Shown: positions 4,573 through 45,854, counted from the first letter of the stretch. The stretch is DNA of 56,324 bases from an uncultured Brevinematales bacterium (GCA_964392785.1 CAYMRH010000003.1:1-56324), one strand, 5' to 3'. Made by a program: numbers and translations. Notes: generated from the sequence alone by a model not told the origin.

Positions 4573-5696
4573 GGCGCCTTGCCTCCGGGGTGATTATAGC
4601 ACGGGGGGGAGGGTTTTGGAAGAATATTCGTTGCCACGGAGGGCCCCACAAAATTGCCACGAAGACACAAAGGCACAGAGAGCTCATGATAACCGCTCAG
4701 GGGGCCAGGCTACGAGTCATTTCGATTTGCGACATCCGCTCGCCCTCTCGACGCGGCTCGGGGCAGGCTCGCGGGCAAAAAGGGCTCCGCCCTTTTCAAA
4801 CCGTGCGATTGACGCAGCCCTTGCCTTGATTAAATATTATATCGATTTCACATCACGGTGCGGAACCGCCAACTTCAGTAGGGGCGCGACCACTACTGCA
4901 CCGCGCCATTTCTTTTCATAAAATCAGTGATCCTGGCAGGATGGGCATGCGCTCGCCGCGCGGGCGAAAAGGGCTCCGCCCTTTTCAATCCCTATTCGCG
5001 CCGCTCTCTCAAGGGTAAGAGCGTCGGGCAGAAACGCCTGGGGTGAGAATCGGGGATATTTCGCATCCGGAGCCCACGACGGGCGACGTACTTTCGCCGA
5101 CAGGATGTCCAGGCGAAAGTGCTTCCATGGATTGAATTGATATACGTAATCCCGCACTCACAACATCCTGTTCGTGCGGGACCTCCGCATCCTGCTTCGG
5201 TCCCCTCACCGAAGGACATCACGTTCGGCAGGCTCAGTGCAGGCCCTGTCCTTCTCAGAAGAGCCGCATTTCTTCCCTGAAGAAGAAGCGAGAGCTAAGC
5301 GCGCGGAGATTGTTTTGATTTGGGATTGGCCTCCCGCGCATACGAGTGGCTAAGGCGCGTGGGGGATAGGAACGGAGAAACGGGAGAACGAATAGGTGTT
5401 AAAGAAATCCCGCTCTCCGAGCGTGCAGCACCTGCACGCAGGTGCTGGACGGCCGAGGAGAGCTAAGGCGCGCGAGGGGTAATGAACGGAAGAACGAATC
5501 GGCATAACAACTCGCTCTCCGTGGTTCGACACGGCCGCCGCGATAAATCAATGATCCGCCGTCGCCAGTATTCCTTGGCCCGAAATCCGAAGAATACCAC
5601 CATATGGCGTCAGAACTGTTTATTGGAAAATTATAGATAGCTGAAAAGGCAATACCTGTAATATGCAGCAGGAAAACTAGAATTATGCCTAACTTC
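4573..5696. repeat. 1.1 kb non-coding, repeat- and hairpin-rich region
   Basis: No credible ORF in any frame. Two copies of a ~30 nt hairpin repeat, CGCGGGCRAAAAGGGCTCCGCCCTTTTCAA, at 4771-4800 and 4961-4990. Degenerate ~70 bp direct repeats at about 5346-5420 and 5461-5525 (GCTAAGGCGCGYG...GAACGGARAA...GAACGAAT...CGCTCTCCG). A long imperfect hairpin at 5412-5463 (GCTCTCC...CAGCACCTGC ac GCAGGTGCTG...GGAGAGC). One copy of the CCACGAAGACACAAAGGCACAGAGAG motif at 4657-4683. Confidence 0.5.
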
Positions 5697-7625: not shown

Positions 7626-7689
7626 GGTGTTGGCTCCAACAAATATTGATCTGCTGTTATTTTAGCCGTTCGCCCGGCCCTTCGATATA

Positions 7690-7862
7690 CGGCCTCGACT
7701 TCGGCCTCACCGGCGTCTCGATAGTCCGGCAAAGCAAGGAGCGGTGAACTCGACGACCGGTTCGGCCGAGACTTCGGTCCCCGAGCGATGCCCTGAGCTC
7801 AGCCGAACGGGTTTACGGCTTCCTCGTCCAGCAGCACTATCGAGGGGCCGAAGTCGAGGCCG
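7690..7862. repeat. Large imperfect palindrome between the ribD-like gene end and the start of the 642 aa gene
   Basis: Perfect 17 bp arms CGGCCTCGACTTCGGCC (7690-7706) and GGCCGAAGTCGAGGCCG (7846-7862). Nested arms TCGATAGT and CACTATCGA. Can fold into a ~170 nt hairpin. Confidence 0.5.
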
Positions 7863-7985
7863 CCACACTCCTTTATGAGTTCTCTGCGTCATCGCGTGAT
7901 CGGATTCCGCGCCTGCCCCAAGCCGTCACCCTGAGCGGAGCCTGCGGTGAGCTTGTCGAACCGTCGAAGGCAGCATTTTCATTAT

Positions 7986-23383: not shown

Positions 23384-23916
23384 CCAGCCGGATCATTCTT
23401 TCGGGTTTCGGGGGCCAGGGCGTTTTGTCGGCCGGAACGATGATCGGCGAGGCGGGCATGGCGCAGGGCTTGAAATCCACGTTTTACCCGTCCTACGGCG
23501 CGGAAATGCGGGGCGGCACGGCCAACTGTCACGTGATATTGTCCGACGGGCCCATCGCATCCCCCGTCATTTCCTCGAACGCGGATATCCTGATCGCCCT
23601 GAACAAACCGTCCCTGGACAAATTCCTGCCGCGCACAAAGGAGGACGGACTGGTCCTTCTGAACACATCCGTCGTCAGGGAGGCGGTGGACACCGGAAAA
23701 CGGACGGTGATCCGCATGCCCGTGGAGGAACTGGCGCTGGAAAAGATCGGCAACCCCAGAATGGCGAACGTGATCCTGCTGGGCGCGCTGGCCAAGGCGA
23801 CCGGACTTTTGAAACTGGACGAACTGAAAAAATCCATCGCGGAAAAGTTCAAAAAGAAAGGCGATCAGGTGGTCCAATTGAACTGGAAAGCTTTGGAGTT
23901 AGGATATCAGTATTAG
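23380..23916 (+). CDS. 2-oxoacid:ferredoxin oxidoreductase gamma subunit
   Basis: Start ATG at 23380 overlaps the beta stop (ATGA). MTSRIILSGFGGQGVLSAG is the gamma-subunit N-terminus. The delta-alpha-beta-gamma order matches OorDABC/KorDABG-type operons. Confidence 0.8.
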   Translation: MTSRIILSGFGGQGVLSAGTMIGEAGMAQGLKSTFYPSYGAEMRGGTANCHVILSDGPIASPVISSNADILIALNKPSLDKFLPRTKEDGLVLLNTSVVREAVDTGKRTVIRMPVEELALEKIGNPRMANVILLGALAKATGLLKLDELKKSIAEKFKKKGDQVVQLNWKALELGYQY

Positions 23917-24021
23917 TTGTCAGTTGTCAGTTGTCAGTTGCTAGTTTCCAGTGGATATTGGAAAAATGTTGTTCTTTAATACCGGCAACTGATCACTGAC
24001 AACCAGCAACTGACCACTCGC
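23917..24021. repeat. Heptamer-repeat palindrome (GTTGTCA)n and inverted copy between the oxidoreductase operon and the DEAD-box helicase gene
   Basis: TTA GTTGTCA GTTGTCA GTTGTCA GTTGCTA GTTTCCA GTGG, a ~30 nt centre, then CAACTGATCACTGACAACCAGCAACTGACCACTCG (inverted heptamers). Likely a bidirectional terminator or regulatory hairpin. Confidence 0.5.
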
Positions 24022-25424: not shown

Positions 25425-25522
25425 CGACAGTTGCCAGTTGCCGGTTCCCGACCCGTGTTCGGGGCCGTTCACTGACAACTGGCAACTGATAACTGATTAA
25501 TGACAACTGATTACTGACAACT
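25425..25522. repeat. Second heptamer-repeat palindrome (GTTGCCA / TGACAAC units) in the 5' leader region of the helicase gene
   Basis: CGACA GTTGCCA GTTGCCG GTTCCCG acccgtgttcggggc CGTTCAC TGACAAC TGGCAAC TGATAAC TGATTAA TGACAAC TGATTAC TGACAAC. Same heptamer family as 23917-24021. Confidence 0.5.
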
Positions 25523-26054
25523 ACTTCTTAGCCGTCTCAGAAACCAGTTTTCCGACCACAGGGCGTTTGGACAATACGCCCTTGCCGTGCGGCGCGCCCT
25601 TGATCCGAGCGGTTATATCCGTCCCGATCTTTCCGCCGCGGTGTTCGCCTTTGGACCAGGCGCCCACGCCCGTCATGTCGTACACCAGTCCGTCCACGGA
25701 CAGATACATGGGCCGGCCGTCCTTGCCGTCATACTGGGCCAGTTCTTCGGCGGTAAACGCCGGGACCAGTTTGCCGACCACAGGCCGTTTGGACAATACG
25801 CCTTTTCCGTGCGGCGCGCCCTTGATCCGAGCGGTTATATCCGTCCCGATCTTTCCGCCGCGGTGTTCGCCTTTGGACCAGGCGCCCACGCCCGTCATGT
25901 CGTACACCAGTCCGTCCACGGACAGATACATGGGCCGGCCGTCCTTGCCGTCGAACTGGACCAGCTCGTTCGTCGTGAAATAGTTCGTGTTCCCGGCAAA
26001 CGCGATAGCGGCCGCGGTCAGGACCAGGCCCAGCGCCGTCAGTATTCGTTTCAT
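25521..26054 (-). CDS. Secreted protein with two tandem cytochrome b5-like heme/steroid-binding domains
   Basis: Signal peptide MKRILTALGLVLTAAAIAFA. Two nearly identical 74 aa units (FT.EEL.QYDGKDGRPMYLSVDGLVYDMTGVGAWSKGEHRGGKIGTDITARIKGAPHGKGVLSKRPVVGKLV) encoded by a near-perfect 222 bp tandem DNA duplication. Confidence 0.6.
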   Translation of the reverse strand: MKRILTALGLVLTAAAIAFAGNTNYFTTNELVQFDGKDGRPMYLSVDGLVYDMTGVGAWSKGEHRGGKIGTDITARIKGAPHGKGVLSKRPVVGKLVPAFTAEELAQYDGKDGRPMYLSVDGLVYDMTGVGAWSKGEHRGGKIGTDITARIKGAPHGKGVLSKRPVVGKLVSETAKK

Positions 26055-33391: not shown

Positions 33392-33480
33392 GTTTTTAGC
33401 CGCAGAGACACGGAGGACGCAGAGTTTACATAATAGTAGGGGCTATGAGCCCCTCTGGCCCCAAGTATTTTTTTCGCCTC

Positions 33481-33693
33481 GCCGGCGTGGCCATAAGGGG
33501 GCCTGCCCCCTTAAACCCCGGGTGCGCGCGGTGCCCTCTCACGGGCAGGACATTGCGAAAGAAACGCGCGGGGGTAAGAATCGCAAACACTCGCCATCGT
33601 GGCGAGGGTTTGCTCATCGAAAGACATCCTGTCTTTCTTAGAAATACTTCGTTTCCTTCACGGAGTAGAATCGAGGGCACAGCGCCGGAAGCA
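33481..33693. repeat. Left ~215 bp inverted repeat bounding the AT-rich island
   Basis: GCCGGCGTGGCCATAAGGGGGCCTGCCCCCTTAAACCCCGG...TGCGAAAGAAACGCGCGGGGGTAAGAATCGCAAACACTCGCCATC...CTTCACGGAGTAGAATCGAGGGCACAGCGCCGGAAGCA. About 75% identical to the reverse complement of 44400-44626. Contains the hairpin TAAGGGGGC-ct-GCCCCCTTA. Confidence 0.6.
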
Positions 33694-33722
33694 AGAACGG
33701 AGAAGGAGTATTAGATATCCAT

Positions 33723-36218
33723 TTATAATTCATTTGCACCAATCACTGTGTCATAGAGTCCAATATCTTCGCCTTCGTGCTTGTTGACTCCGGTATAAAC
33801 CAGACTCGAATCTTCATAGCGTTTGAATTTATAAACGGCATCATTCATTAAAGCGCTGTTAAAAACGTTAAGGCTGACCAATAACTCGAAATCTTTCACA
33901 TTCAATCCCGTTACTTTCTTGAAAAGGCCTGGTTCCAATTGGGTAATTACATCCCGCAAAGTTCTCTCACGGAAATCAGTCAAATACATGAAAATCGGTA
34001 TACGAGTCGCAAATTTAATGAGTTTTTCTTGAATCTGCTTTCTGAGATTTTTATAGGTCTTTTCTTCTTCCGTCAATTTCTTCAGCTCTTTTTTAGTTAG
34101 GTCTCGGTCATTCGCTTCATTCTTTAACTTCTTGATCGCATCCGACTTGTTTATTATAGTTTCAATTTCCTGATTCAGTCTGCGGAAACCCTCGATGTTC
34201 ATAAGCGCCTGCATGGCTTTTTCATTGTTCATAAGTTTTTGGAGTGTGTCATTATCAACATTGACGAGAAGCGCGCTTTCCCATCGGCGCGCCAGTAACG
34301 TAGCGGTGGTTCCGCTCATAGCGATATCTAACACACCCGCCGGATCAATCTCTTTCATGCTCATTCCGTCATAACACAGTACCGGCAAGAAATGAATGAA
34401 ATCCGCTACTTTCTTTTCAGGATTCGTTTCATAAACACTCAGACGGCAGCTATAATCCGCGATTTGCCTTAAAGCCCTGTCCGGTGCAAAATCGAACACA
34501 TAGCACTCACTTTTAATGATTTCTTCTTTATTGGGTGATGAATGATCCGGATTTCTCACCGTCCAGGGCGACTGAACACGGAAAGCCGCTTGAAAGTAAG
34601 TTTCCGGACTGGATGTATTTCTCAGCATGAGAATACCAGTCCACGGTTTTATCGTAACGCCTGTGGTCAGTTTACCGCAGGAAAGCGTGATGGTTTTTGT
34701 TTTCAAAGGGTCGTCCATTGCCTCCAAAACTGGAGGCAGTGCGTCAACTCCTATACCCGCATCGGAACCGGCTGCTACAACAACCTGATAATCATGATAA
34801 AATTTATTCTGCTTTTGGCCAATCAGGGATTTCATGGCATGGCAGGCCGAAACACTGGGCATAAACCAGAGAGTATGGGTTAGTATATTCAATAAACGAG
34901 CGTCTGAAAACGGTAATGGGGGTTTCTGCGCACCCAGTTTTAAATTATCGACAGTTGTTTCCAGTAAGGAACCACGTATCAGATCAAGCCACTTCTGGAC
35001 TTCGTTTTCGTGTACAAATTTCGCACGACTGCCCAATCCCTCGGCGGAGAAAAATTCGTTTAAGTCAAACTCGTTGAATTCTCCTTTCAGGGCGATTTCC
35101 CTTATACTGTCGGGAAGCTGGTAAGTCAGCATGACCATCCTAGGCAGGGCCGCGTAGGGATTTTCTCCGTCCTTCCAATCTTCCTTTGCTTTCTGTTCGT
35201 CTGAATAAGTCCAGTTGAATATCTGTTCTTCGATAAATTCCCCCGATGTAATGGCCCGAAACGGGGTGCCTGAAAGGTATAGATAGTGGCTTGTTGTTAG
35301 CGGCATGATGCTTTCATCAAAATATTCAATACCTTCGCCCTCTGCAAAGGCAGTTTCTTTTCTATCTTCCGCCTCAAATAATTCCTTGGCATTCTCGCGC
35401 CATGCGCCGTAATGATACTCGTCAAAAATAACACAATCCCAATGAATAGCATGAGCCCATTCGTTTTTTAGTTTGATTCCGCCCGCCTCGTTACGCCCGA
35501 GGAAATCCTGAAAAGACGCAAAACAAATGAAGGGTTTGTTTTTCTTCACTTCCTCATAAGTCAAACCGTTACGGGAAATGAATTGCCAGCCTTTGAAATC
35601 AATATGGGACTTCAAATCTTCTTCCCAAGCGCTCTGGACGGCGGGCTTGAAAGTCAATATCAGGACTTTTGACCAGCCCATGGATTTGGCCAACTGATAA
35701 GAGGCGAAGGTTTTACCAAAACGCATTTTCGCGTTCCAGAGAAAGTGAGGTGTTTTACGCGGATTTTCCTTTTTGAATGATTTGAAATAGACCATTGCTT
35801 TTTTGACGGCCTCTTTTTGTTCCGGCCGCATGGAAAAATCCAGGGTGCGGGATTCCTCATTCAATTCACCCCTTTTCACAGCCAACACGGCGGCTTTTAC
35901 CTTCTCAACCGAACATTGAAACCACTCGCCCTCGGGGTTTTTTATACCGATTAATCTTAAATAGCGATGAACATCATGGTCAGTAAAGGAGCTTCCGTCT
36001 CCCCGCATGGCCGATTCTTCAAGAACGATCCGGTAAGGTAAAGGCCCCGGCCTGACCGTTGGGTACTGCTCGGCCACCCGCTCTTGGGCACTTTTTGTCG
36101 TATAACCGACCTTTAATAGCCCCTTATACTGCGGATTGGTGTCTTCATAAGCATAAATGATCGGCTTGACTTCGGGCCTTTGTGGAAATATTTCTTTAAC
36201 GGCCACTCTTATCTCCAC
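33723..36218 (-). CDS. T5orf172/GIY-YIG-like nuclease domain fused to an SF2 helicase/ATPase (restriction-subunit-like), 831 aa
   Basis: The N-terminus PIIYAYEDTNPQYKGLLKVGYTTKSAQERVAEQ resembles the T5orf172/GIY-YIG domain. Walker A AKMRFGKTFASYQ and motif II VIFDEYHYG. Last gene of the five-gene operon. Confidence 0.6.
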   Translation of the reverse strand: MEIRVAVKEIFPQRPEVKPIIYAYEDTNPQYKGLLKVGYTTKSAQERVAEQYPTVRPGPLPYRIVLEESAMRGDGSSFTDHDVHRYLRLIGIKNPEGEWFQCSVEKVKAAVLAVKRGELNEESRTLDFSMRPEQKEAVKKAMVYFKSFKKENPRKTPHFLWNAKMRFGKTFASYQLAKSMGWSKVLILTFKPAVQSAWEEDLKSHIDFKGWQFISRNGLTYEEVKKNKPFICFASFQDFLGRNEAGGIKLKNEWAHAIHWDCVIFDEYHYGAWRENAKELFEAEDRKETAFAEGEGIEYFDESIMPLTTSHYLYLSGTPFRAITSGEFIEEQIFNWTYSDEQKAKEDWKDGENPYAALPRMVMLTYQLPDSIREIALKGEFNEFDLNEFFSAEGLGSRAKFVHENEVQKWLDLIRGSLLETTVDNLKLGAQKPPLPFSDARLLNILTHTLWFMPSVSACHAMKSLIGQKQNKFYHDYQVVVAAGSDAGIGVDALPPVLEAMDDPLKTKTITLSCGKLTTGVTIKPWTGILMLRNTSSPETYFQAAFRVQSPWTVRNPDHSSPNKEEIIKSECYVFDFAPDRALRQIADYSCRLSVYETNPEKKVADFIHFLPVLCYDGMSMKEIDPAGVLDIAMSGTTATLLARRWESALLVNVDNDTLQKLMNNEKAMQALMNIEGFRRLNQEIETIINKSDAIKKLKNEANDRDLTKKELKKLTEEEKTYKNLRKQIQEKLIKFATRIPIFMYLTDFRERTLRDVITQLEPGLFKKVTGLNVKDFELLVSLNVFNSALMNDAVYKFKRYEDSSLVYTGVNKHEGEDIGLYDTVIGANEL

Positions 36219-36245
36219 CTACTTAATTTTTATAGCATTGTAATA

Positions 36246-37751
36246 TTAAGCATTATCTGAATCCATGGGACGAATCATCGATTCGATGAACTCAATATCC
36301 TTGTCACTTAAACCAAAATGCGAGTATAACATTTTATCTGTCCATTTCTTTTTCATATTCATTTTTGGAACAAATGCAAATCTATCCTTTGTTATATGTT
36401 GCGTGTTTTTCCGCAACCCAACAAGAAATCTTACAAATCTTGTTCTTATATATCTGTTTAAATTATCCGCTTCATCCTGATTATCGTATGCACCAACGAC
36501 AATATATGTTTCGGTGCAGGCGCTCATAGGGGGCGCAATTATTGGTTTTCCCATAATCATACGTGGATAATCTCTGGTTTCACCGCCCTCACCATAGCCC
36601 ATAGATAGAAACACTTTCCATAAAGGAATTAATTCAAAACCATTTTCTATATCCTTTCTTTCGATCTTACCAACAGTTTTATTGGCATATAGCTTAATAT
36701 TACCTTTACCAGTTGGTTTGATAAACGTCCTTAGTCCGAAAGGTTTTTGCCGGGATACTTGTTCGCTGAGCGATGGATATTTTTTCTCCAATACCTTATC
36801 AAGGATTGATATCGCTTTGTTAAAACGGACAAATGTATCAAATTGATTAAGCTTTCGTTTCATCGAGTCTTCATTGTTATTCATATTTGTCGTAACAAGA
36901 CAGTCTCCTTGGTAATCGCGTTCCCATAAGAAGTAACAAACACCGCCAATAACTTTTACTCCGGGAAATACATCCGATGCAATAGGATAATCAACCAATC
37001 TTGATATTCTTTTATCATTCAACATGCTGTCTCTGAATTCATCAAGGCCTTTGCCTCCTGCAAACCAACGCGAAGGAATAATAAAGCTGAGATATCTTGG
37101 ATTTAATTTCTTGGCAGTATTGACAAATAATTGATAAATTGGGGATGAGCCTGTGCTATCACCGGCATCACTCAATTGATACGGCGGGTTGCCTACAATC
37201 ACGTCAAATTTCATATTAAATAACTCCTCCGTCTGTTCGGTATGGATAAACTGATACGCATGCGTTTCCAGCGTTTCGCCGCGATCATATTCAACTTGGC
37301 TTGCGCCACAATAAACACATTTACCGTCTTCCCATTTGTGTTTGATGCTTTTAAACATGATATTGCCAACTTCATTTGTAAAAGCACTGCAAACGGAATA
37401 CTTTCCATCCGCTATTTTTGAACAGTATAGCGACCTTCGTGATAAAAGAGCGGTCAGCTCGGTAATGGCAATACCGAATATCTGTTTGGTGTAAATATGA
37501 TTTAGACGCTTTTGCATACTCGGAATTTCTTTTTCAAGACCCGCAATAAGCCGTTTGGCGATTTCCCGCAGGAATACGCCTGATTTTGAAACAGGATCAA
37601 GAAATGTCACATTTTTGTTTTTCCAGAGATCTGCAGGCAGTAAATCCAGTATTCTGTTGGCCAACTGTGGCGGTGTAAACACCTCGTCACTACTTAAATT
37701 GGCAAGGCAAGATAAAACATCCGGGTTATAGCCGGTATTAATCAGCATCAA
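36246..37751 (-). CDS. N6-adenine DNA methyltransferase (gamma-class, Eco57I/TaqI-like), 501 aa
   Basis: Motif X DEVFTPPQLANRIL, motif I FLDPVSKSGVFL and motif IV FDVIVGNPPYQ. The C-terminal half is a probable target-recognition region. Confidence 0.75.
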   Translation of the reverse strand: MMLINTGYNPDVLSCLANLSSDEVFTPPQLANRILDLLPADLWKNKNVTFLDPVSKSGVFLREIAKRLIAGLEKEIPSMQKRLNHIYTKQIFGIAITELTALLSRRSLYCSKIADGKYSVCSAFTNEVGNIMFKSIKHKWEDGKCVYCGASQVEYDRGETLETHAYQFIHTEQTEELFNMKFDVIVGNPPYQLSDAGDSTGSSPIYQLFVNTAKKLNPRYLSFIIPSRWFAGGKGLDEFRDSMLNDKRISRLVDYPIASDVFPGVKVIGGVCYFLWERDYQGDCLVTTNMNNNEDSMKRKLNQFDTFVRFNKAISILDKVLEKKYPSLSEQVSRQKPFGLRTFIKPTGKGNIKLYANKTVGKIERKDIENGFELIPLWKVFLSMGYGEGGETRDYPRMIMGKPIIAPPMSACTETYIVVGAYDNQDEADNLNRYIRTRFVRFLVGLRKNTQHITKDRFAFVPKMNMKKKWTDKMLYSHFGLSDKDIEFIESMIRPMDSDNA

Positions 37752-38409
37752 TTAGCCTCAGAAAATGAGTAACGGGGTACTCTCTGACAGGATCGGGTAT
37801 AAATACATCATCCCCTAGGTCGGAAAAAAGCGGCTCGCTCTTTATTTCTTCATGGGCTAAAAGTCCGTGAAAAGTAAAATCGCGCCTTTTGATATTGCTT
37901 CCATTAACGGGCGACCATTCGGAAAATGTGATGGGATTCTGAGTCACCCCAACGGTTTTAAGAGTCAGCGCGTCGCCCCAAATGATATTTTTACTTAATA
38001 TGAACTTGACCGAATCGAGGCATTCTTTCTTGATCTGATTTTGGAATATAGTCACATATCTTTCATTAAATATCTCGAAAAGACGGTTCCGGCAGTCCTG
38101 AACGTTATCTTCCAGAATATCGATGCCGTAAACACTGGAAATAACCAAAACGGCATTACGCTCATATTCAATCTGGCTTTTAGCATACTTCGTTTCAACC
38201 ATGCTTAATTTGCGCCGGAGAATTACGGCTAAAAAGTTGCCTGCTCCACAGGCCGGTTCCAGAAAACGGGATTCAATTCTTTCCGTTTCTTGTTTGACAA
38301 GATCCAGCATAGCATTGACTTCCCGCGACGCGGTATAGACCTCGCCGTGGTCAGTTACACGCTGTTTGGAAACGACTTGGGATGCTTGTTTCATTTGCGT
38401 CATATTCAA
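37738..38409 (-). CDS. Truncated methyltransferase-like paralog (SAM-binding motifs X and I present, catalytic NPPY absent), 223 aa
   Basis: HGEVYTASREVNAMLDLV (motif X-like) and FLEPACGAGNFL (motif I). No NPPY/DPPY; the corresponding position reads NIIWGDAL. Overlaps the downstream MTase gene by 14 nt. Confidence 0.55.
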   Translation of the reverse strand: MNMTQMKQASQVVSKQRVTDHGEVYTASREVNAMLDLVKQETERIESRFLEPACGAGNFLAVILRRKLSMVETKYAKSQIEYERNAVLVISSVYGIDILEDNVQDCRNRLFEIFNERYVTIFQNQIKKECLDSVKFILSKNIIWGDALTLKTVGVTQNPITFSEWSPVNGSNIKRRDFTFHGLLAHEEIKSEPLFSDLGDDVFIPDPVREYPVTHFLRLIDAD

Positions 38410-39143
38410 TTCAATTGCCTTTCTTTTTTACTTAACTTATCGTTATCAATAATATAGTATTCGAGAGTTTGATTATTCTTTGTATTCTTATTCTTAAGAA
38501 TATTCAGAAATACAAAACCAGCTAAAGCCTGATGGTCTCTGATGGCATGTTTAAAATTGATAAAATGAAGAATTATTAGTACAACAGCAATTACTATAAC
38601 ACAAGTATCTTTGAAAATTATTGATCTAGAAACAATGCACAAAGTTATTAATAACCAGGCCGCTAATGCTGAAATTGAGGCAATACATATTGTACCTAGC
38701 GAGGTTGAAACATCTGCCAATCTTTTCATTCTGGTAATATCATATTTAAAATTCGTATTCGCTTTTGAATGATCAATCACTGAATTTACGATTAAATACG
38801 ACCTTTTCTTTTGATTAACAAGTTTAATATTATCTTTGTAATTATTAAATATAATTAGATTATTATTTACAGCATAATCAACAATATCATTGAAATTGCT
38901 TGAATAACATGAACGCCAAACAAAAGCATAATATATTACACCAAATATAAAACCTAATCCTCCAGAAGCAAGTAAGCCAGAAAGTATAATAATTGCATTT
39001 CCGAGCGAACCATTAACTAGTAATGAATGAAAATAATTGAGAACAGTATAACGATCTGATGAAAGTAAAAAATATAATATCAATTCAACAAAAAACACCA
39101 GGCTCGGTAAAATATAGCGAAAATAGCTTTGCATATCTTTCAT
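38406..39143 (-). CDS. Hypothetical polytopic membrane protein, 245 aa
   Basis: At least 4 predicted TM helices. AT-rich codon usage matches the island. 4 nt start/stop overlaps with both neighbouring genes. Confidence 0.5.
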   Translation of the reverse strand: MKDMQSYFRYILPSLVFFVELILYFLLSSDRYTVLNYFHSLLVNGSLGNAIIILSGLLASGGLGFIFGVIYYAFVWRSCYSSNFNDIVDYAVNNNLIIFNNYKDNIKLVNQKKRSYLIVNSVIDHSKANTNFKYDITRMKRLADVSTSLGTICIASISALAAWLLITLCIVSRSIIFKDTCVIVIAVVLIILHFINFKHAIRDHQALAGFVFLNILKNKNTKNNQTLEYYIIDNDKLSKKERQLN

Positions 39144-39757
39144 GATATGATAACCCCATATTCCTTCTGAAGCAATGATATTTCATTAGGTAACTTATAG
39201 TCTAAATCATTAATGAACTCGATTATTTCGCACACATGAAGAGTCTTTTTATTGTGAATTGGCAGGGCAATGTATTCGATTGGAATAACAATATTTATTA
39301 GATAATCAAGAGCCTCCTCGCTCCAATATCTTTTAGCCAAATTAACATCCAATAAACCGCTTTCAACAAAAACCTTAATGTTCATAAAATAATTAATTAT
39401 CTTTCTTCTGTAAGCATCTAAATTATTGTCATTATTTGAAGAATTTATACACTCAAGATATTTATTAACTAAAATAATTAATTTATCCTTCTTTACTATA
39501 TCAGTATCATCACTATAAATATAGCATTTATGATCCCTTGCAAAATCACAAAGTGATTTTATTGCTTGGTGCATATCTTTGGTTGAATATTGTTCAACTG
39601 CCTTAATAAAGTTGTTGTATTTTGTATCTTTTCTTGATTTTAAGATTGTGTATATTGATAAAATGAAAGCAAGCAACGCAATGATTACATCCGCATGATT
39701 TATGAGTAATCTGATTGGCCATAGAAGCCAATTAACAATAGTACAAAGATTGCCCAT
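39140..39757 (-). CDS. Hypothetical membrane-anchored protein, 205 aa; first gene of the island operon
   Basis: N-terminal TM helices (LCTIVNWLLWPIRLLINHADVIIALLAFILSIYTIL) and a soluble C-terminal domain with no recognised motif. Confidence 0.5.
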   Translation of the reverse strand: MGNLCTIVNWLLWPIRLLINHADVIIALLAFILSIYTILKSRKDTKYNNFIKAVEQYSTKDMHQAIKSLCDFARDHKCYIYSDDTDIVKKDKLIILVNKYLECINSSNNDNNLDAYRRKIINYFMNIKVFVESGLLDVNLAKRYWSEEALDYLINIVIPIEYIALPIHNKKTLHVCEIIEFINDLDYKLPNEISLLQKEYGVIIS

Positions 39758-39976
39758 ACATATCCAACTATTTATTATAATGCAATCACATTATACCCCC
39801 TCCCCCTCCATCTCGTCAAAGCATGATTAGGATTCAGGATATAGGATTTAGGGTTCAGAGGGGTAGGCAGGTCCTTGTTAGGGTCTAGAGGCCAAGATTT
39901 GGGATTCAGGGGGATAGACGGGTCATAGTAGGGATCAGAGGACTGGATTTAGATTTAGATAAAATATTCCGCTTGT

Positions 39977-40147
39977 CTAGAGTAATGATAAAAATACTGT
40001 AATGATAATTATTACTAAAAATAATACAACAGGAATAAGAATTAATAGTTGGCAACCGGTTAATTTTAATTTTGCGCCACAATTCGGACATATTTTTGCG
40101 CTAGAACTGATTTCTTTACCACATTCTCTGCAATTGACTAGAGCCAC
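39977..40147 (-). CDS. Small zinc-ribbon membrane protein, 56 aa, below the ORF-track cutoff
   Basis: Hand-translated: V(GTG)ALVNCRECGKEISSSAKICPNCGAKLKLTGCQLLILIPVVLFLVIIIITVFLSLL*. A CxxC-x12-CxxC zinc ribbon plus a C-terminal TM helix. AGGAG lies 6 nt upstream of the GTG. The overlapping 61 aa ORF listed at 39906..40091 is judged spurious. Confidence 0.35.
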   Translation of the reverse strand: MALVNCRECGKEISSSAKICPNCGAKLKLTGCQLLILIPVVLFLVIIIITVFLSLL

Positions 40148-40187
40148 ACCGCTCTCCTTTCAGCTCGTTTTCTAAGCGAAACCAATT

Positions 40188-40540
40188 ATACCCCCTCCCC
40201 CGCCCCGGCGTCAAAGCATTATTAGGATTCAGGGTCTAGGATTTAGGGTTCAGTTATATATTAACCAGCTGGCTGCCCCTAAATCCTGGATCCTGACCCA
40301 TAAACTGCCCTTAAAAACGAGGTCATCGGCCCAAATAACGAGGCTGTCCTCCTTAATAACGAGGACAACGCCCTTCCGAACGAGGTTACCGGCCTTCGGA
40401 ACGGCAATGCCGGGGTTCAGAAGGAGGATATCCTCCCTTTTCAGGGGAACAGCGGGGTTCTGAGGGGGAATGGCCTCGCTTTTTGGGGGAATAGTGGGGT
40501 TCTGAAGACCAATTTCGGGGTTTTGGCAGCCGCAGTGACA
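40188..40540. repeat. Composite repeat copy A upstream of the small zinc-ribbon gene: ATTATACCCCCTCCCCC box, TTAGGR-like degenerate repeats, then a 21 bp tandem array
   Basis: CCAATTATACCCCCTCCCCCGCCCCGGCGTCAAAGCATTATTAGGATTCAGGGTCTAGGATTTAGGGTTCAG at 40188-40260. About ten ~21 bp units follow from 40315 (AACGAGGTCATCGGCCCAAAT, AACGAGGCTGTCCTCCTTAAT, AACGAGGACAACGCCCTTCCG, AACGAGGTTACCGGCCTTCGG, ...GGGAATAGTGGGGTTCTGAAG). Confidence 0.55.
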
Positions 40541-40935
40541 CAGAGACGCAGAGGATAACCCTCGTCGAAGTTTATCCTGAGCGAGCGTTGAAAGCGCGAG
40601 TCGAAGGGCTAGGGATGACCATGCTCGTTTCCTGACGTCAGAGGCGCTTGGAGCGCCGGCCGCGTAGCGCCACGGACGCTCCTAAGAGGCGGGCTGGGCT
40701 CTGACTAAAGTGTCAGGTGAATACTCTCACGGTACAATTAATCATTTAACTCTACCTTTATAACTCTTTTCAAGAAATACCCCACAATGTTCTCACATAA
40801 CTGTTCGGGGCTTGGCGTAATGGGCGCTTTTCAGCACAAAACTTGATAAGAAACACAGTGTTTATATTTAGCACATAATTTCAAACGAAATACGTCCGCC
40901 CCTATTACATCAAGCACTTGTTAACGGTTCAAGTA

Positions 40936-43608
40936 TTACTGTAATTTTATTGTTTTTTTACAGTTGGGATAATTCGTGCAACCTAAGAAATCTCCATATT
41001 TCCCTGTTCTCTTTATCATATAGCCGCTATAGCAATTTGGGCAGAGGATTTCATCATCTAATATTTCTAAATTGTTAAACGTTTGATCGCAATTAGGATA
41101 ATGTGAACAGCCTAGAAAGTGAGTGCCATTTGATGGGTTTTGTCTAATAATAAGCTTCCCTGTTTTACAGTATGGACAATTTGTAGTTTTGAGCGATCCG
41201 TCAGCAGAAGTTAACAAATAAATATTATCATTTATTATTTCTTCAATAAATAATGAAGGTTCAGTCGGGGTAAGTAATACAACCTCATTTTTAGTTCTTG
41301 TTAACGCTACATAAAACAACCTACGTTCCTCCGCAAATCTAAACTCTTCGTCATCACTGAGCAAAAGAGATAAGATTGGGTCGTCAGTCATTTTATTGGG
41401 AAATCCAAGCAATTGATTCTTAAGATTTAATACGATTACATTGTCCGCCTCAGTTCCTTTTGACTTGTGTACGGTTAAATATTTAATGTCCATATCTTCA
41501 AATCCTTTAACTACTAATTTACCAGTTCTCTCAATGTATTTAACCCTACTATTTGTGGTTTTCTTTATTAATTCGTTAATATCAAACCCATGTCTGCCTA
41601 AAACTAAGATTGATTTGCTTCCATATCTATTTACAAGATTTTGTATTTCGTTTATGAATGAATCTTCCATCTCTTCTTGCGTGTAATAAACAATTCTAAC
41701 AGGGTCTTTCAAAGGTTCTTTCTTAGACTTAGGGGATTTTGATATTTGTTTGGGATTTTTTTGAATGTATTTTGATGCAATGTCAATAAGTGCTTGTGAA
41801 TTTCTGTATGTCTGTTCAATCAATAGTTGTTCATGTATTCCTAGGTATTTTTCGAAATTACTGAATAAAGATATATCGCTACCTGCAAAACGATAAATCG
41901 ATTGCCAATCGTCTCCAACACAAATCAATTTTGCACCAGATAAATCACGAATTTCCTTGATCAAATGAAATCGTGAATACGAAATGTCTTGATATTCATC
42001 TACTATTATATACTGATAGTTGAATTTTATTTTATTACTTTTTATGATACCAGTAGCCATATTTATCATATCATTGAAATCAATCTCATTTCTTTCTTTT
42101 AAAGTTTGGTCGTATTTTTCAAGAATTGGAAGCGCAAATTGCAAGAACATTGCTTGACGTTCTAGCATAAAGTCGCTTTGGAATTTTGTTTTATCCGAAA
42201 ACAATTTGACTAACGAAATCTTGTTTAAACCTCTTGATTTACTTAGATTAACAAAGCTTTCAATAAGGTTATTAATTTCCTTGCCGATATTTATGTCATT
42301 GATCGATATTTCTGTGTAAATTATTTTTGGATCTCTCGGCTTGAAAGCAACCTTTTCCGCTTCCAACATTTCCTTCAGCTTCTTTAACAATATTTTATCT
42401 CTATTGTAATAGGAATATGTTTCTAGTAATTTGGTGCCGTAGGCTTTGTGTGTTTCCCTTTTTAATTGCATAGTTTCTAAATATTTTTGTTCATTAAAAG
42501 GTGTGAGCCATTTTGCCCGATTATATTCGTCTACGCCAAAATGTTCTAAATATATTTCATAATCTGTTAGAAAAAAGTCAGGACGATACATTGCCTGTCC
42601 ATAAGGGTATGGTTTTTCATACTCATACTCAACTCCATTCAGATATAAATAGTTAGCTATTATTAGTTCCTCAACACTTTTAACCCTCTCTCCTTGCATG
42701 GTATTTAGATTTGGTTTTGAAACGATGTTTGAAGGTTCGCATTTTGATTTCAATGTTTGAAAATCAATCCCCTTTTCTGTATCTATTTTTTCTCCCAAAG
42801 ACTTGTAATTGTCAAATTCTTCAGGAATATTCATATAGCATGCAACGTATTGAATAAAAGATTGCAATGCTTCCATATCGTTGAAAATGTCTGTTTTTAA
42901 ATACTCTTTGATCACTCCACTCATTGTGTTTTCATTTGTAACGGCAGGAATGACCGAATAGTATTTTTTTATTATATCATAACCAAGTTTATGAAAAGTA
43001 GTTGCCAGTGCACCAAATCCTAATTTATGAATTCTTTCATTTAACTCTTCTACGGTTTTTTTTGTAAAAGATAATAACAAGATGTTATTGGGATTGATAT
43101 TTTTCTGTTCAATTAGATATTTCACTTTTCCAAGGATTGTAAGTGTTTTACCCGAACCCGCACCAGCAATTATTAAATTCGAGTATTCGTCTGTTATCAA
43201 TGCAGTCCGTTGCTGATCATCTAGCTTTTTTCCTTCGATATTGTCAAAATACTTTTCTAATATTTCTTTTTGTTTATTAACGTAATTTTGGTTATATCGA
43301 GCAATATATCCGTCAAAATCACTGAATATATCATTAAATGTCTTAACGGTTTCTTCTTTCTTGTAATAATAAGTTTTGTTAGCAAAATACTTACTCACAT
43401 CCGAATATTCTGTTTTTATCTGGTCACGGTGTACCCAAGTAACATAATCGTTAAGTGATTGAATACGATGAATAAATTCAGTAATCAGTTGTAAGTTCTC
43501 TAAATAAACAGCGTCTTGATACTTTCTCCTTTCAGATAGTTGCTGGAAAACAATAGAGAAAGCAATTATCACAAACAGGGCGAAAATAAGAGTTAGAATC
43601 GTAACCAC
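40936..43608 (-). CDS. Membrane-anchored UvrD/Rep-family (SF1) helicase with an internal restriction-endonuclease-like insert and two C-terminal topoisomerase-type C4 zinc ribbons, 890 aa
   Basis: N-terminal TM helix VTILTLIFALFVIIAFSIVF. Motif I LIIAGAGSGKTLTILGK and motif II YQYIIVDEYQDISYSRF. Insert around ...YRPDFFLTDYEIYLEHFG... . The C-terminus reads NCPYCKTGKL...GCSHYPNCD and LCPNCYSGYM...GCTNYPNCK. Confidence 0.7.
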   Translation of the reverse strand: MVTILTLIFALFVIIAFSIVFQQLSERRKYQDAVYLENLQLITEFIHRIQSLNDYVTWVHRDQIKTEYSDVSKYFANKTYYYKKEETVKTFNDIFSDFDGYIARYNQNYVNKQKEILEKYFDNIEGKKLDDQQRTALITDEYSNLIIAGAGSGKTLTILGKVKYLIEQKNINPNNILLLSFTKKTVEELNERIHKLGFGALATTFHKLGYDIIKKYYSVIPAVTNENTMSGVIKEYLKTDIFNDMEALQSFIQYVACYMNIPEEFDNYKSLGEKIDTEKGIDFQTLKSKCEPSNIVSKPNLNTMQGERVKSVEELIIANYLYLNGVEYEYEKPYPYGQAMYRPDFFLTDYEIYLEHFGVDEYNRAKWLTPFNEQKYLETMQLKRETHKAYGTKLLETYSYYNRDKILLKKLKEMLEAEKVAFKPRDPKIIYTEISINDINIGKEINNLIESFVNLSKSRGLNKISLVKLFSDKTKFQSDFMLERQAMFLQFALPILEKYDQTLKERNEIDFNDMINMATGIIKSNKIKFNYQYIIVDEYQDISYSRFHLIKEIRDLSGAKLICVGDDWQSIYRFAGSDISLFSNFEKYLGIHEQLLIEQTYRNSQALIDIASKYIQKNPKQISKSPKSKKEPLKDPVRIVYYTQEEMEDSFINEIQNLVNRYGSKSILVLGRHGFDINELIKKTTNSRVKYIERTGKLVVKGFEDMDIKYLTVHKSKGTEADNVIVLNLKNQLLGFPNKMTDDPILSLLLSDDEEFRFAEERRLFYVALTRTKNEVVLLTPTEPSLFIEEIINDNIYLLTSADGSLKTTNCPYCKTGKLIIRQNPSNGTHFLGCSHYPNCDQTFNNLEILDDEILCPNCYSGYMIKRTGKYGDFLGCTNYPNCKKTIKLQ

Positions 43609-43689
43609 AATTTATCTTCCCGAATTATGTTTATGTTACATCGGGTTTGTTTCTTTTGCCTGACCGCTAACTCATATATATACGAATCC

Positions 43690-44120
43690 CATTATACCTC
43701 CTCCCCCTCCGCAGCGTCAAAACCATATTAGGATTCAGGGGCTAGGGTTTAGGATTTAGGAGGGTAGGCAGGTCCTCATTAGGGGCCAGTATTTAGGATA
43801 CAGGGAAATATGCACCAACTGATGTGTTCCTGAATCCTAATCCCTAAAACCCGACCCCTAAACTCTAACCCCTAAATCCTAGACCCTAACCACCACCCCC
43901 GGAACCCTAAAACCTGAATCCTGACCCCTAACATGGCCTACGGAAGGGGAACGTTGCCACTCTGAACGCCATCATTGCCCTTCCGGATAGCAACGTTGCC
44001 CTACAGAACGAGGACATTGGCCTTCCGGACCCCAACGTCGGGGTTCAGAAGGAGGATGTCCTCCCTTTTTAGGGGAATAGTGGGGTTCTGAGGACCAATT
44101 TCGGGGTTTTTTGGTCGTAA
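43690..44120. repeat. Composite repeat copy B upstream of the UvrD-like helicase gene; includes an inverted block of TTAGGR repeats
   Basis: CATTATACCTCCTCCCCCTCCGCAGCGTCAAAACCATATTAGGATTCAGGGGCTAGGGTTTAGGATTTAGG... at 43690-43800. CCTAAATCC/CCCTAAAAC units read in the opposite direction at 43830-43930 (potential long hairpin). 21 bp array at 43940-44120 (AACGCCATCATTGCCCTTCCGG, AACGAGGACATTGGCCTTCCGG, ...GGAATAGTGGGGTTCTGAGG). The 3' part is near-identical to 40400-40540. Confidence 0.55.
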
Positions 44121-44399
44121 ACCACAAAGACACAAAGGAACACAAAGTCAGCTGCGGAGGGCGCGGAGAGCCGGAGGGTTGCCCTCGACCGCCCCCTTCG
44201 ACACGGCCGCCGCGGTGAGCCGCGTCGAACCGTCAGGGCATCGCCTCGGTCGCGGTTGGCGAGCGGAGCCTGCGGTGAGCGAAGCCGAGACTTTTACACC
44301 GAGCCTTGCCCCGAGCAACGTCGAGGGGTAGCCGAGGTGCCATCCTGGCTCCCGTGCACTGGCGCTAGAACATCCATGTTCGCGCCAGTACCTACGGCC

Positions 44400-44626
44400 T
44401 CGTGCCTCCGGCGCTGTGCTCACGATTCTACTCCGTGAAAGAAACGAAGCGTTCCTGAGAAGGGCAGGATGCCCTTCGATGAGCGCACCCTCCGCAGGAT
44501 GCGGAGTGTGCGCGATTCCCACCCCCGTGAGTTTCTTTCACAACGCTTTGCCCATGAAGAGAGCATAGCGCGATTCCGGGGTATAAGGGGGCGGGCCCCC
44601 TTAATGCCGGCGCGGCGAGCGCACGC
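44400..44626. repeat. Right ~225 bp inverted repeat bounding the AT-rich island
   Basis: Reverse complement aligns with 33481-33693 at about 75% identity. Contains the hairpin TAAGGGGGC-gg-GCCCCCTTA and CGATTCTACTCCGTGAAAGAAACGAAGCG, which matches CTTCACGGAGTAGAATCG in the left copy. Confidence 0.6.
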
Positions 44627-45521: not shown

Positions 45522-45854
45522 TCATTGGTTCAGGAGTTTATCAATGGATATTTTCAATTTGGGAATTTCATCACGGATAGCGCTCCAGACCAGCGCCAGG
45601 TTGACGCCAAAATACTCGTGAATCAGTTTGTCTCGCATGCCGGTGATCTTACGCCAGGGAATGTCCGGATGCCCGGGTTTTTCACCGTCCGGGATGCTTT
45701 TAGCGGCTTCGCCGATGATTTCAAGACTTCGGATAAAGGCCCGCTGTTTCAACTCATCATTTTCCAAATCCTTAAAGGTCATGGCATTCGTTTCGCGAAG
45801 CAGGAATTCATTTTCCTTCGCAATGTGAGAGCAATAGAATTTATAGTTTTTCAT
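45522..45854 (-). CDS. HepT-like (DUF86) toxin, nucleotidyltransferase substrate-binding protein
   Basis: 110 aa. RDKLIHEYFGVNLALVW is the DUF86/HepT Rx4HxY motif region. Confidence 0.75.
   Translation of the reverse strand: MKNYKFYCSHIAKENEFLLRETNAMTFKDLENDELKQRAFIRSLEIIGEAAKSIPDGEKPGHPDIPWRKITGMRDKLIHEYFGVNLALVWSAIRDEIPKLKISIDKLLNQ

Follow-up and report, generated by a model that had tools for sequence, protein, structure and literature searches.

A low-GC island in the genome of an uncultured Brevinematales bacterium, located between a sugar ABC transporter and panC and bracketed by two inverted repeats, raises the question of whether these arms are the ends or the targets of a mobile element, or host DNA that borders a site of variable content. 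The DNA analysed was a single stretch of 56,324 nucleotides, referred to here as the window. With a probability of about 0.6, the arms would represent a lineage-specific, structured intergenic repeat of the host chromosome that flanks a strain-variable slot, and not transposon ends.

Layout and gene content of the island

The island lies between two convergent host operons, and the flanking host genes are the ABC transporter, panC and pyrG. The sharp GC drop reported at 33694 in a preliminary description of this DNA was recovered at 33,700, where the GC content fell from 0.50 to 0.38 in 100-nt windows and which abuts the left arm; the recovery placed at about 44400, however, occurred already at about 43,700, and the roughly 700 bp that separate this point from the right arm (43,700-44,400) consist of GC-rich, non-coding repeats and promoter sequence. 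A patch of host-like GC also breaks the island at 40,100-40,700. The arm cores showed a GC content of 0.56-0.58, like that of the host, and the cargo 0.28-0.45. The window contains only two low-GC patches, this island and another one bordered by a third copy of the repeat. As the same description had stated, neither integrase, transposase nor tRNA could be seen: ARAGORN found no tRNA or tmRNA in the whole window, unlike what is expected of a tRNA/tmRNA-targeted genomic island, and no ORF of the island matched an integrase or transposase in Pfam, PADLOC, NCBIfam or PHROGs. Likewise, no recombinase was found in the island or in the examined neighbours (pyrG, panC, MNT/HepT, the ABC transporter, folD and others), and a comparison of the island and leader DNA with plasmids and phages gave no match.

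The cargo genes are all encoded on the minus strand. A foreign three-gene cassette (33723..38409), defined by family matches and by the occurrence of the same trio on an unrelated contig of about 38% GC with 74% nucleotide identity, comprises a 223-aa MmeI-type methylase N-domain protein (37738-38409), a 501-aa Eco57I-type methylase (36246-37751) and an 831-aa protein in which a T5orf172 (GIY-YIG-like) nuclease is fused to an SF2 helicase (33723-36218), the last of which is 77-84% identical in Peregrinibacteria, Planctomycetota, Cloacimonadota, Kiritimatiellia and others. Two very low-GC genes (38406..39757) head the operon of this trio, one (39140-39757) coding for a DUF4760 protein and the other (38406-39143) for a protein of 245 aa that matched no family. 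Further genes are a small ORF (39906..40091) with a zinc ribbon, a transmembrane segment and its own copy of the promoter module, and the gene of an 890-aa UvrD/HelD-type (GajB-like) helicase with two C-terminal topoisomerase-type zinc ribbons (40936..43608), which forms the second low-GC block. Judged by these matches, the cargo is a mosaic of horizontally acquired, putative anti-phage/defence genes.

Two GC-rich leaders are associated with these genes, both on the minus strand. Leader 1 (43609..44397) is non-coding and combines a spacer that holds REP-like pieces, a 21/42-nt tandem array at about 43940-44120, heptads in direct and inverted orientation at about 43725-43940, and a consensus promoter, TTGACG-N18-TATAAT, at 43691-43720. 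The leader 2 region (39758..40700) is a similar spacer with heptads and a 21/42-nt array (about 40300-40530), and contains promoter copies at 40185-40214 and 39790-39819. The three TTGACG-N18-TATAAT modules with their heptad arrays are near-identical and are best read as host-like promoter-leader copies that would drive the cargo genes. The GC-rich intergenic DNA of the window contains many short palindromic repeats. The presence of defence-type families of foreign origin, the housekeeping flanks and the divergence of a sister strain inside the right arm are together those of a predicted defence island, or hotspot, between core genes.

A structured repeat with three copies

The inverted repeats, previously described as imperfect and about 215 bp long, were aligned by gapped pairwise blastn over 224 nt at 78.6% identity (E 1e-51), an alignment that merges the two adjoining arm pairs detected by the repeat search, 33539-33696/44400-44557 (158 nt, 80%) and 33478-33539/44558-44619 (62 nt, 77%). 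According to nhmmer, the left arm (copy L, minus strand), which is supported by alignment, fold and covariation, extends over 33474-33698, and the right arm (copy R, plus strand, inverted relative to L) over 44398-44620, with covariance model scores of 183.8 and 201.1 bits, respectively. The shared sequence blocks quoted in the preliminary description are present in both arms, and so is the perfect GC-rich hairpin that it noticed in each, with an 8-bp stem and a 4-nt loop (33494-33513 in L and 44584-44603 in R); the longest exact word common to both arms has 17 nt. Copy R begins 34 nt past the panC stop codon, and a terminator-like hairpin (33438..33454, minus strand) is located between copy L and the stop codon of the ABC permease (33391). 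A spurious ORF of 89 aa lies inside the left arm.

The core fold, at 33524-33686 in L and 44410-44573 in R, is nested, with a 12-bp stem, an 11-bp stem and two hairpins, and is followed by the separate GC hairpin. In the alignment of L, R and an ortholog, 98.2% of the cells were paired and seven pairs had changed on both sides, values which, as well as the covariation score, were matched by none of 500 shuffles; when the partner columns were slid, pairing fell to 36-57%. RNAalifold detected nine compensated pairs, so that the covarying pairs between the arms are seven to nine overall, with support in four helices, and the single-sequence fold z-scores of the arms ranged from -3.8 to -4.5. This pattern of substitution indicates that the structure of the repeat is under selection, and since the stem differences between the arms are compensatory, the selection would act on the fold and not on a protein-bound terminal sequence.

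A third, more diverged copy (C3; 4949..5310, minus strand) was detected by nhmmer (E 3e-11 and 5e-9) at an unrelated locus 28 kb away; the preliminary description had made no mention of it. Its identity to the arms is about 65%, versus 79% between L and R, and insertions of ~113 nt and ~25 nt enlarge its internal hairpins. Despite ~35% divergence, C3 retains the outer stem, the second stem (11 of 12 pairs) and the GC hairpin. Since MAFFT could not align C3 globally, the stems were compared by hand and script. When the window was searched with the covariance model of L, R and the ortholog, no additional copy came up, and C3 scored only 10.9 bits on account of its insertions. Because this copy is 28 kb away, the element is best read as a dispersed repeat family and not as a pair of termini, a reading which rests on three copies in 56 kb and one ortholog. 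All three copies are intergenic, with L and R between the convergent ABC permease and panC, and the element can thus be classed, from its extragenic, dispersed and stem-loop forming predicted character and its position between convergent genes, as a REP-like intergenic repeat in the broad sense.

Four intergenic gaps border the two low-GC patches of the window, and three of them contain a copy, each with the same end towards the low-GC DNA: the inner end of C3 faces the low-GC gene at 5697-7625, and the far border of that small patch has no copy. This association is post hoc, with P of about 0.05 among long gaps and about 0.001 among all gaps. In L and R alike, the same end (the outer-stem arm ...CACAGCGCC) points inward, and it is for this reason that they look like inverted repeats.

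Folding appears to be better supported on one strand, which in copy L reads from the island to the ABC permease. On the island-to-host strand, the two long stems contain G.U pairs where the opposite strand would give A.C (two in the second stem of L, one in the second stem of C3, and one each in the outer stems of R and C3, that of C3 read by hand from the predicted fold), and the covariation term was -4.42 on this strand versus -2.87 on the other. These data suggest a modest preference for the island-to-host strand, resting on about five G.U pairs. There is no conserved promoter in front of the element and no U-tract after the GC hairpin, so that the latter is not a classical intrinsic terminator. 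No island-side gene is transcribed into copy R.

Searches outside the window gave no relatives. A strict 23-nt core pattern had no match in 185k species genomes; a looser pattern spanning the three copies had 9 genome, 39 metagenome and 1 viral match, all of which were due to chance according to nhmmer; and the 89-aa ORF of the left arm, used as bait, recovered nothing from a collection of 5.8 billion proteins. Rfam 15 had no match at gathering score in the window, and at E up to 10 only unrelated weak matches, which differed among the three copies; the families without a covariance-model match include CsrB/CsrC/RsmX/Y/Z, the IS605/TnpB- and IscB-associated RNAs and the group II intron domains. 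As far as its sequence can tell, the repeat is a well-supported new structured family, absent from Rfam and from the genome, metagenome and viral collections searched.

The arms as probable borders of a strain-variable slot

Comparison with the sister strain DRR438497 showed 100% identity to the window from 44680 to 44441, that is, over 240 nt from panC into the right arm, followed by 31/40, 22/40 and then background beyond 44441. As the identity collapses within the inner stem of the arm, the boundary of the variable DNA lies there, and as copy R remains 100% identical together with the panC flank, the right arm belongs to the conserved flank. The best reading of these data is that L and R delimit a slot whose content would differ between close strains. 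The Logan contigs of SRR12133404, DRR438497 and DRR438494 end, with one exception, in repeat-rich intergenic DNA, and neither an empty site, an alternative cargo nor the left junction was recovered for related strains by exact-protein look-ups of the flanking and island genes or from the Logan contigs.

The preliminary description had offered a duplicated REP-like module marking a variable hotspot as one of several options, and this one is supported by the third copy elsewhere, the host-like GC of the repeat, the conservation of R with panC and the different DNA inside it. In the favoured reading, L and R would be two old, diverged paralogues of a host-chromosome intergenic repeat, placed tail-to-tail between convergent operons. 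The element would work in single-stranded form, most likely as an RNA that runs out of the variable DNA, and its multi-stem cap and GC hairpin might end or insulate the transcripts of strongly promoted foreign genes before they reach the host genes; such a transcript-end or insulator function at the RNA level is proposed here tentatively. The allelic copies of the arms could double as conserved homology anchors for swaps of the slot by homologous recombination. If this reading is true, the inverted repeats are a by-product of two tail-to-tail host repeats and not a signature of mobility, which calls for caution with island and transposon callers. Foreign DNA adjoins each of the three known copies on the same side, and one copy has the sister-strain breakpoint in its inner stem, making the element a candidate boundary, insulator or recombination anchor, from a lineage so poorly sampled that matches to the host panC outside its own species do not exceed 63% identity.

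The same breakpoint, together with the position of every copy beside low-GC DNA, in a uniform orientation towards it, would also agree with an att-like target, in which a recombinase encoded elsewhere would use the inner stem to insert or exchange foreign cassettes, or to excise or invert the slot, and structured single-strand sites are indeed used by some recombinases (integron attC, IS200/IS605 ends). This is a rather improbable explanation. Cargo and element do not meet at a fixed junction, since they lie about 24 nt apart at L and some 390 nt apart at C3, and at R are separated by a host-like leader of about 700 nt; on its far side, the small low-GC patch lacks a copy; and no recombinase was found in the annotated part of the window, which comprises the island and its examined neighbours. 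In addition, the inner 40 nt of the sister strain are homologous but diverged, as in a homologous-recombination tract that ends in an allelic element and not as at a precise junction, and the inverted orientation of the arms predicts inversion and not excision. Invertible segments of the Hin/Gin/Fim type and shufflons likewise found no support (arms 79% identical, longest word of 17 nt, no recombinase found). Integron-like, dif/IMEX, retron, group II intron domain V and TnpB omega-RNA elements were rejected, since the partner gene was absent, the geometry wrong or a model match lacking.

The covariation-supported fold and the modest strand preference would likewise suit independent ncRNA genes linked to the defence cargo, such as a CsrB/RsmZ-type sponge or a regulator of a neighbouring system, which would be new since no described family matches. 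The hairpins present CAGGAUG with GGA in the loop, as such sponges do, and on the favoured strand those of L and R carry ACAGGAUGU, GCAGGAUGC or CACGAUG triloop hairpins; perfect-stem GGA-triloop hairpins number one to two per copy on that strand. However, among heptamers of the same composition CAGGATG/CATCCTG is the most frequent one in the window, with 39 occurrences that are mostly coding (ATC-CTG), and is weak evidence because it is common window-wide, so the CsrA-sponge idea was downgraded. C3 has the motif on the opposite strand too, no conserved upstream promoter or U-tract terminator accompanies the copies, and the CsrB, CsrC and Rsm models gave no match even at E up to 10. We regard independent ncRNA genes as unlikely.

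A defunct transposon, with the arms as the ends of a composite mobile unit or each arm as a transposed MITE, could account for the inverted geometry around foreign DNA, for the several copies present, for the outer-stem arms, which could pass as terminal inverted sequences of each core, and for the Logan assemblies breaking at the element as they do at repeats. It is nevertheless quite unlikely, given that no transposase was found in the island or neighbouring ORFs, that neither the outer flanks (...AAGTATTTTTTT and ...GGCTGGCGTGC) nor the inner flanks of the arms share a duplicated word, as a target-site duplication would require, and that identities of 79% between the arms and about 65% for C3 are far from the near-identity of recently moved MITEs. 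Furthermore, the arms have host GC and the cargo does not, R stays with panC in a strain with different inner DNA, and the compensatory substitutions in internal hairpins would be superfluous for a transposase. The remaining options of the preliminary description, a transposon relic and targets for inversion or excision, found no support, given that no recombinase was found in the island or its neighbours, that target-site duplications are absent, and that the arms are only 79% identical and have no common word longer than 17 nt. It would be similarly surprising if the element were the docking site of an undescribed cassette-capture system, a structured single-strand site bounding slots for foreign promoter-less defence genes, which would receive a standard host leader and promoter module on insertion; such a system would be integron-like in function, with a recombinase encoded elsewhere and sites unrelated to attC. 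Chance similarity, or unconstrained duplication of 3' flanking DNA, for which the short palindromic repeats filling the GC-rich intergenic DNA of this genome might speak, is effectively refuted already by the E values of the arm pair and the third copy (1e-51 and 3e-11) and by 98% pairing despite 21% divergence, with no match in 500 shuffles.

Comparison with known systems

The cargo resembles the dnmA-yeeB-yeeC cluster of defence islands, which combines an MmeI-like methylase, an SF2 helicase and a T5orf172 nuclease (PMC9973331). The island trio has the same three activities in one operon, at a local GC minimum, and is widely transferred horizontally, but here the helicase and the T5orf172 nuclease are fused (831 aa) and the methylase is split (223 and 501 aa). 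This likeness concerns the cargo and not the inverted repeat.

Integron attC sites are structured, imperfect palindromes with a fold conserved over sequence and one functional strand, located 3' of promoterless foreign cassettes; the repeat resembles them, L and C3 following foreign genes on the better-folding strand. It differs from attC in that no IntI integrase or attI was found, L and R have opposite orientations, the helicase cassette lacks a copy downstream, the cassettes carry their own promoters and the element is two to three times as long; it was thus not assigned to integron attC sites.

ERIC/IRU sequences (about 127 nt) and the Correia elements of Neisseria (about 100-155 nt) are longer imperfect palindromes of transcribed intergenic DNA, which form folds in the RNA and can influence where transcripts end and how stable they are. 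The element resembles both as a longer structured intergenic repeat, in other lineages and with other sequences, and differs from Correia elements, which have 26-bp terminal inverted repeats and a TA target duplication, in having no such duplication. To our knowledge, neither is known as a marker of island borders.

REP sequences are simple palindromes of 20-40 nt and REPINs are inverted doublets forming one long hairpin, whereas the present element has ~220 nt, with two long-range stems around a branched junction and a separate hairpin, and no sequence homology to them. Neither a RAYT-type transposase nor an IS200-like gene is present in the window, and the element is therefore not a REP, BIME or REPIN in the strict sense. 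The term REP-like holds by analogy and not by homology to any described repeat found. In P. fluorescens, strain-specific families of stem-loop repeats are enriched between convergent genes in a 'Tail-repeat-Tail' arrangement (PMC2718517). Both these repeats (R0, R2 and IR1_g, of REPIN type) and the enterobacterial REP/BIME sequences, for which roles as terminators or in mRNA stabilisation have been proposed, are, like the present element, dispersed, GC-rich, extragenic, stem-loop forming, lineage- or strain-specific and located between convergent genes.

Inverted arms and their third homologue

The inverted repeat that the preliminary description had placed between the ABC transporter and panC was recovered by repeat search, blastn and profile search alike. 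The repeat search resolved two adjoining pairs of segments, 33539-33696/44400-44557 (158 nt, 80%) and 33478-33539/44558-44619 (62 nt, 77%), gapped blastn joined the arms in a single 224-nt alignment (78.6% identity, E 1e-51), and the profile search set the limits at 33474-33698 (minus strand) for the left arm and 44398-44620 (plus strand) for the right arm. The GC content dropped sharply at 33,700, directly against the left arm, as had been described, whereas the recovery on the right was found at about 43,700, roughly 700 bp short of the right arm, and not at the arm edge proposed before. A patch of host-like GC at 40.1-40.7 kb splits the island, as we call the low-GC stretch of defence genes between the arms. 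The arm cores had a GC content of 0.56-0.58, the level of the surrounding chromosome. The left arm begins 83 nt past the stop codon of the ABC permease and the right arm 34 nt past that of panC; since these two genes converge, the copies of the element lie tail-to-tail.

Both blastn and nhmmer revealed a third, more divergent copy at 4949-5310 (minus strand; nhmmer E 3e-11 and 5e-9), oriented like the left arm and enlarged by two insertions (about 113 and 25 nt). The arms are therefore members of a dispersed family and not a unique pair of termini. This copy adjoins the sole other strongly low-GC patch of the window, a gene for a 642-aa signal-peptide protein (5697-7625), and turns toward the low-GC DNA the same end as the other copies do, while the opposite border of the patch has no copy. 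Of the four intergenic gaps that flank the two low-GC patches of the window, three are filled by copies of the element, with a post hoc probability of about 0.05 when the count was confined to gaps of 230 nt or more and of about 0.001 for all gaps. The tie between the element and the borders of foreign DNA is intriguing and statistically modest. Patterns covering all three copies retrieved no member of the family from 185k species-representative genomes, the JGI/ENA metagenome collection or IMG/VR, and a translated bait from the element had no match; as the organism is poorly sampled, this absence elsewhere is weak evidence.

The 642-aa protein is encoded at a GC content of about 0.32, has an N-terminal signal peptide and showed only a sub-threshold match to Pfam SH3_3, with none in NCBIfam or PHROGs. 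Its gene lies between the third copy and a GC-rich, REP-like stretch (7650-7975). A widespread palindromic intergenic repeat of the 'GTCACCCTGAGC...GTCGAAGG' type supplies GC-rich pieces at borders of low-GC patches (7790-7975 and 44190-44330; 1828-1855 in L051, a Logan contig of the sister strain DRR438497). The motif GGAACGG(A/G)GAAC stands just inside the inner end of the left arm (33697-33710), of the third copy (5362-5396, 5477-5503) and of the right arm of the sister strain (L051 1796-1826), and is missing at the inner end of the window's own right arm.

Conserved fold of the element

Whichever strand was folded, both arms were much more stable than their shuffled controls (z -3.8 to -4.5). 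RNAalifold applied to the two arms and the sister-strain ortholog of the right arm returned a single common architecture, in which an outer stem of 12 bp and a second stem of 11 bp enclose a junction bearing two hairpins (8 bp and 6+7 bp); a separate GC hairpin of 8 bp follows. RNAalifold reported nine compensated pairs, and a pair count for its structure gave 98.2% of cells paired and seven pairs changed on both sides. In none of 500 shuffles did the percentage paired, the count of doubly changed pairs or the covariation score reach the observed value, and sliding the partner columns by 1-3 lowered the pairing to 36-57%. The GC hairpin and both long stems are conserved in the third copy, where 11 of 12 pairs of the second stem (GGGAAGAAAUGC/GCGUUUCUGCCC) are kept and the internal hairpins are expanded.

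The long stems contain G.U pairs on the strand reading outward from the low-GC DNA, where the other strand would give A.C: two in the second stem of the left arm and one in that of the third copy, and one in the outer stem of both the right arm and the third copy (the latter read by hand from the fold). The covariation term was -4.42 on the outward strand versus -2.87 on the opposite one. This preference for the outward-reading strand is modest and not decisive. No Rfam family matched at gathering thresholds, and weak matches at E up to 10 were inconsistent between copies. Structured intergenic repeats are a known class; within it the element is new, and its covariation support is unusually good.

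Foreign genes behind host-like leaders

On the minus strand from panC, the island opens with a GC-rich non-coding leader (43609-44397) ahead of a GajB-like helicase of the UvrD/HelD type (890 aa), which carries zinc ribbons of the topoisomerase type; a second leader (39758-40700) follows before a small ORF with a zinc ribbon and a TM segment; the third promoter precedes genes for a DUF4760 protein, an unknown protein of 245 aa and a 223-aa protein with an MmeI-type methylase N-domain; and the order up to the left arm is completed by an Eco57I-type methylase of 501 aa and, at 33723-36218, a T5orf172 nuclease-SF2 helicase of 831 aa. GC3 was 0.21-0.48 in island genes versus about 0.8 in host genes. 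The nuclease-helicase showed 77-84% identity to more than 100 protein clusters of unrelated phyla (Peregrinibacteria, Planctomycetota, Cloacimonadota, Kiritimatiellia, Thermodesulfobacteriota), and the best identity of the host panC outside its own species was not above 63%. The trio of 223, about 500 and about 830 aa was also found as a unit on an unrelated contig of about 38% GC (74% nucleotide identity in the nuclease-helicase gene), which carries behind it further genes missing from this island. No near match to the island DNA was found among plasmids and phages. The cargo is foreign and mosaic, and its trio has a functional counterpart in the dnmA-yeeB-yeeC cluster of defence islands (PMC9973331). 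The conservation of the nuclease-helicase is unusually strong for a defence gene; NCBIfam holds no model for it.

In its non-coding parts the island is GC-rich and resembles the host. Three near-identical consensus promoters on the minus strand (39790-39819, 40185-40214 and 43691-43720) consist of TTGACG-N18-TATAAT with a G-rich GGGGGAGGRGG spacer and occur nowhere else in the window. Upstream of every one are direct and inverted heptads (TTAGGGT/TCAGGAT type), which look like an operator array for a putative heptad-binding repressor, and two of the three also have 21/42-nt tandem arrays upstream (40300-40530, 43940-44120) with CCTCGTT every 21 nt. Transcription of the foreign low-GC genes would thus start from host-like GC-rich leader modules.

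A motif of about 35 nt, CTCTGCGTC..GTGTC.CTGCGGCT..AAAACC (minus strand), heads both arrays (40525-40560, ~44125-44165) and recurs at 33400-33430, in the gap that separates the ABC permease stop codon from the left arm. Heptads of other sequence (CAGTTGT/CAACTGA type) stand in tandem between ordinary host genes (23915-23946, 25471-25522), so that the genome is generally rich in intergenic repeats. Heptads of this type also form the end of L051, and such tandem arrays appear to be a feature of intergenic DNA throughout the genome. On the minus strand, a gene encoding a small secreted protein holds a 222-nt tandem duplication (25543-25972; 1.9 copies, 95% identical), which is an internal domain duplication.

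Strain variation and interpretation of the arms

In L051, panC is 98% identical to that of the window, and identity is complete over 44,680-44,441, which covers the panC end and 180 nt of the right arm. Further inward it fell to 31/40, then to 22/40, and then to background. Within the inner 40 nt of the sister-strain arm, the outer-stem arm is still recognisable and paired differently, as would be expected if a homologous-recombination tract had stopped inside an allelic copy. Past the arm lies a leader of similar kind (21/42-nt array, heptads) with other sequence and continuation, its arrays (L051 1960-2200) being only 68-83% similar though the neighbouring arm is 100% identical. Because identity ends in the arm and different DNA lies beyond, the content of the slot is strain-variable and the arm is its edge. 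DRR438497 lacks the HepT toxin gene that is paired with MNT beside panC (45522-45854 versus L051 503-640): 138 nt stand there in place of 369 nt, and the MNT gene and panC are retained at 97-98% identity.

We consider it probable (about 60%) that the two arms are paralogous copies of a structured intergenic repeat of the host, specific to its lineage, and that, lying tail-to-tail between convergent operons, they bound a strain-variable hotspot of defence cassettes. The earlier suggestion of a REP-like module marking a variable hotspot holds in this broad sense, given the third copy and the variation past the right arm. A polymerase running out of the variable DNA would, on the better-supported strand, meet the multi-stem core first and the GC hairpin next, and a terminator-like hairpin follows the left arm (33454-33438). 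Tentatively, the element might cap or insulate transcripts of the strongly promoted foreign genes before run-off into host operons, which would be antisense into the ABC and panC operons and sense into the folD operon at the third copy. The sister-strain breakpoint would also fit a role as conserved homology anchor for swaps of slot content.

The main rival, in which the inner stem is the site for a recombinase encoded elsewhere, is unlikely. No ORF of the island or of the neighbours examined (the housekeeping pyrG, panC, folD, ABC transporter, POR and DEAD-box helicase, and the MNT/HepT pair) matched recombinase families, and no tRNA or tmRNA was found in the window, in agreement with the preliminary description, which saw no integrase, transposase or tRNA. 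A CsrB-like sponge is only a lead: hairpins of the favoured strand present CAGGAUG with GGA in the loop, but this heptamer is the commonest of its composition across the window because of ATC-CTG codons, both strands of the third copy carry it, and the element shows no evident promoter or terminator. The proposed site-specific inversion or excision is not supported: there is no recombinase in the island or the neighbours examined, and the longest exact word common to the arms is 17 nt, a poor RecA substrate. The proposed transposon relic, or MITE ends, is likewise not supported: no transposase was found in the same set of genes, there is no target-site duplication, identity is only 79% between the arms and about 65% with the third copy, the arms are host-like in GC, their internal hairpins carry compensatory substitutions, and the right arm stays with panC in a strain with different cargo. 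An integron-like array was dismissed, with no IntI, inverted arms, a helicase cassette lacking a 3' copy and cassettes that carry their own promoters.

The reading of the arms as paralogous host intergenic repeats has a parallel in Pseudomonas fluorescens, whose stem-loop repeat families show a 'Tail-repeat-Tail' bias (PMC2718517), and the geometry of the left and right arms fits this bias.
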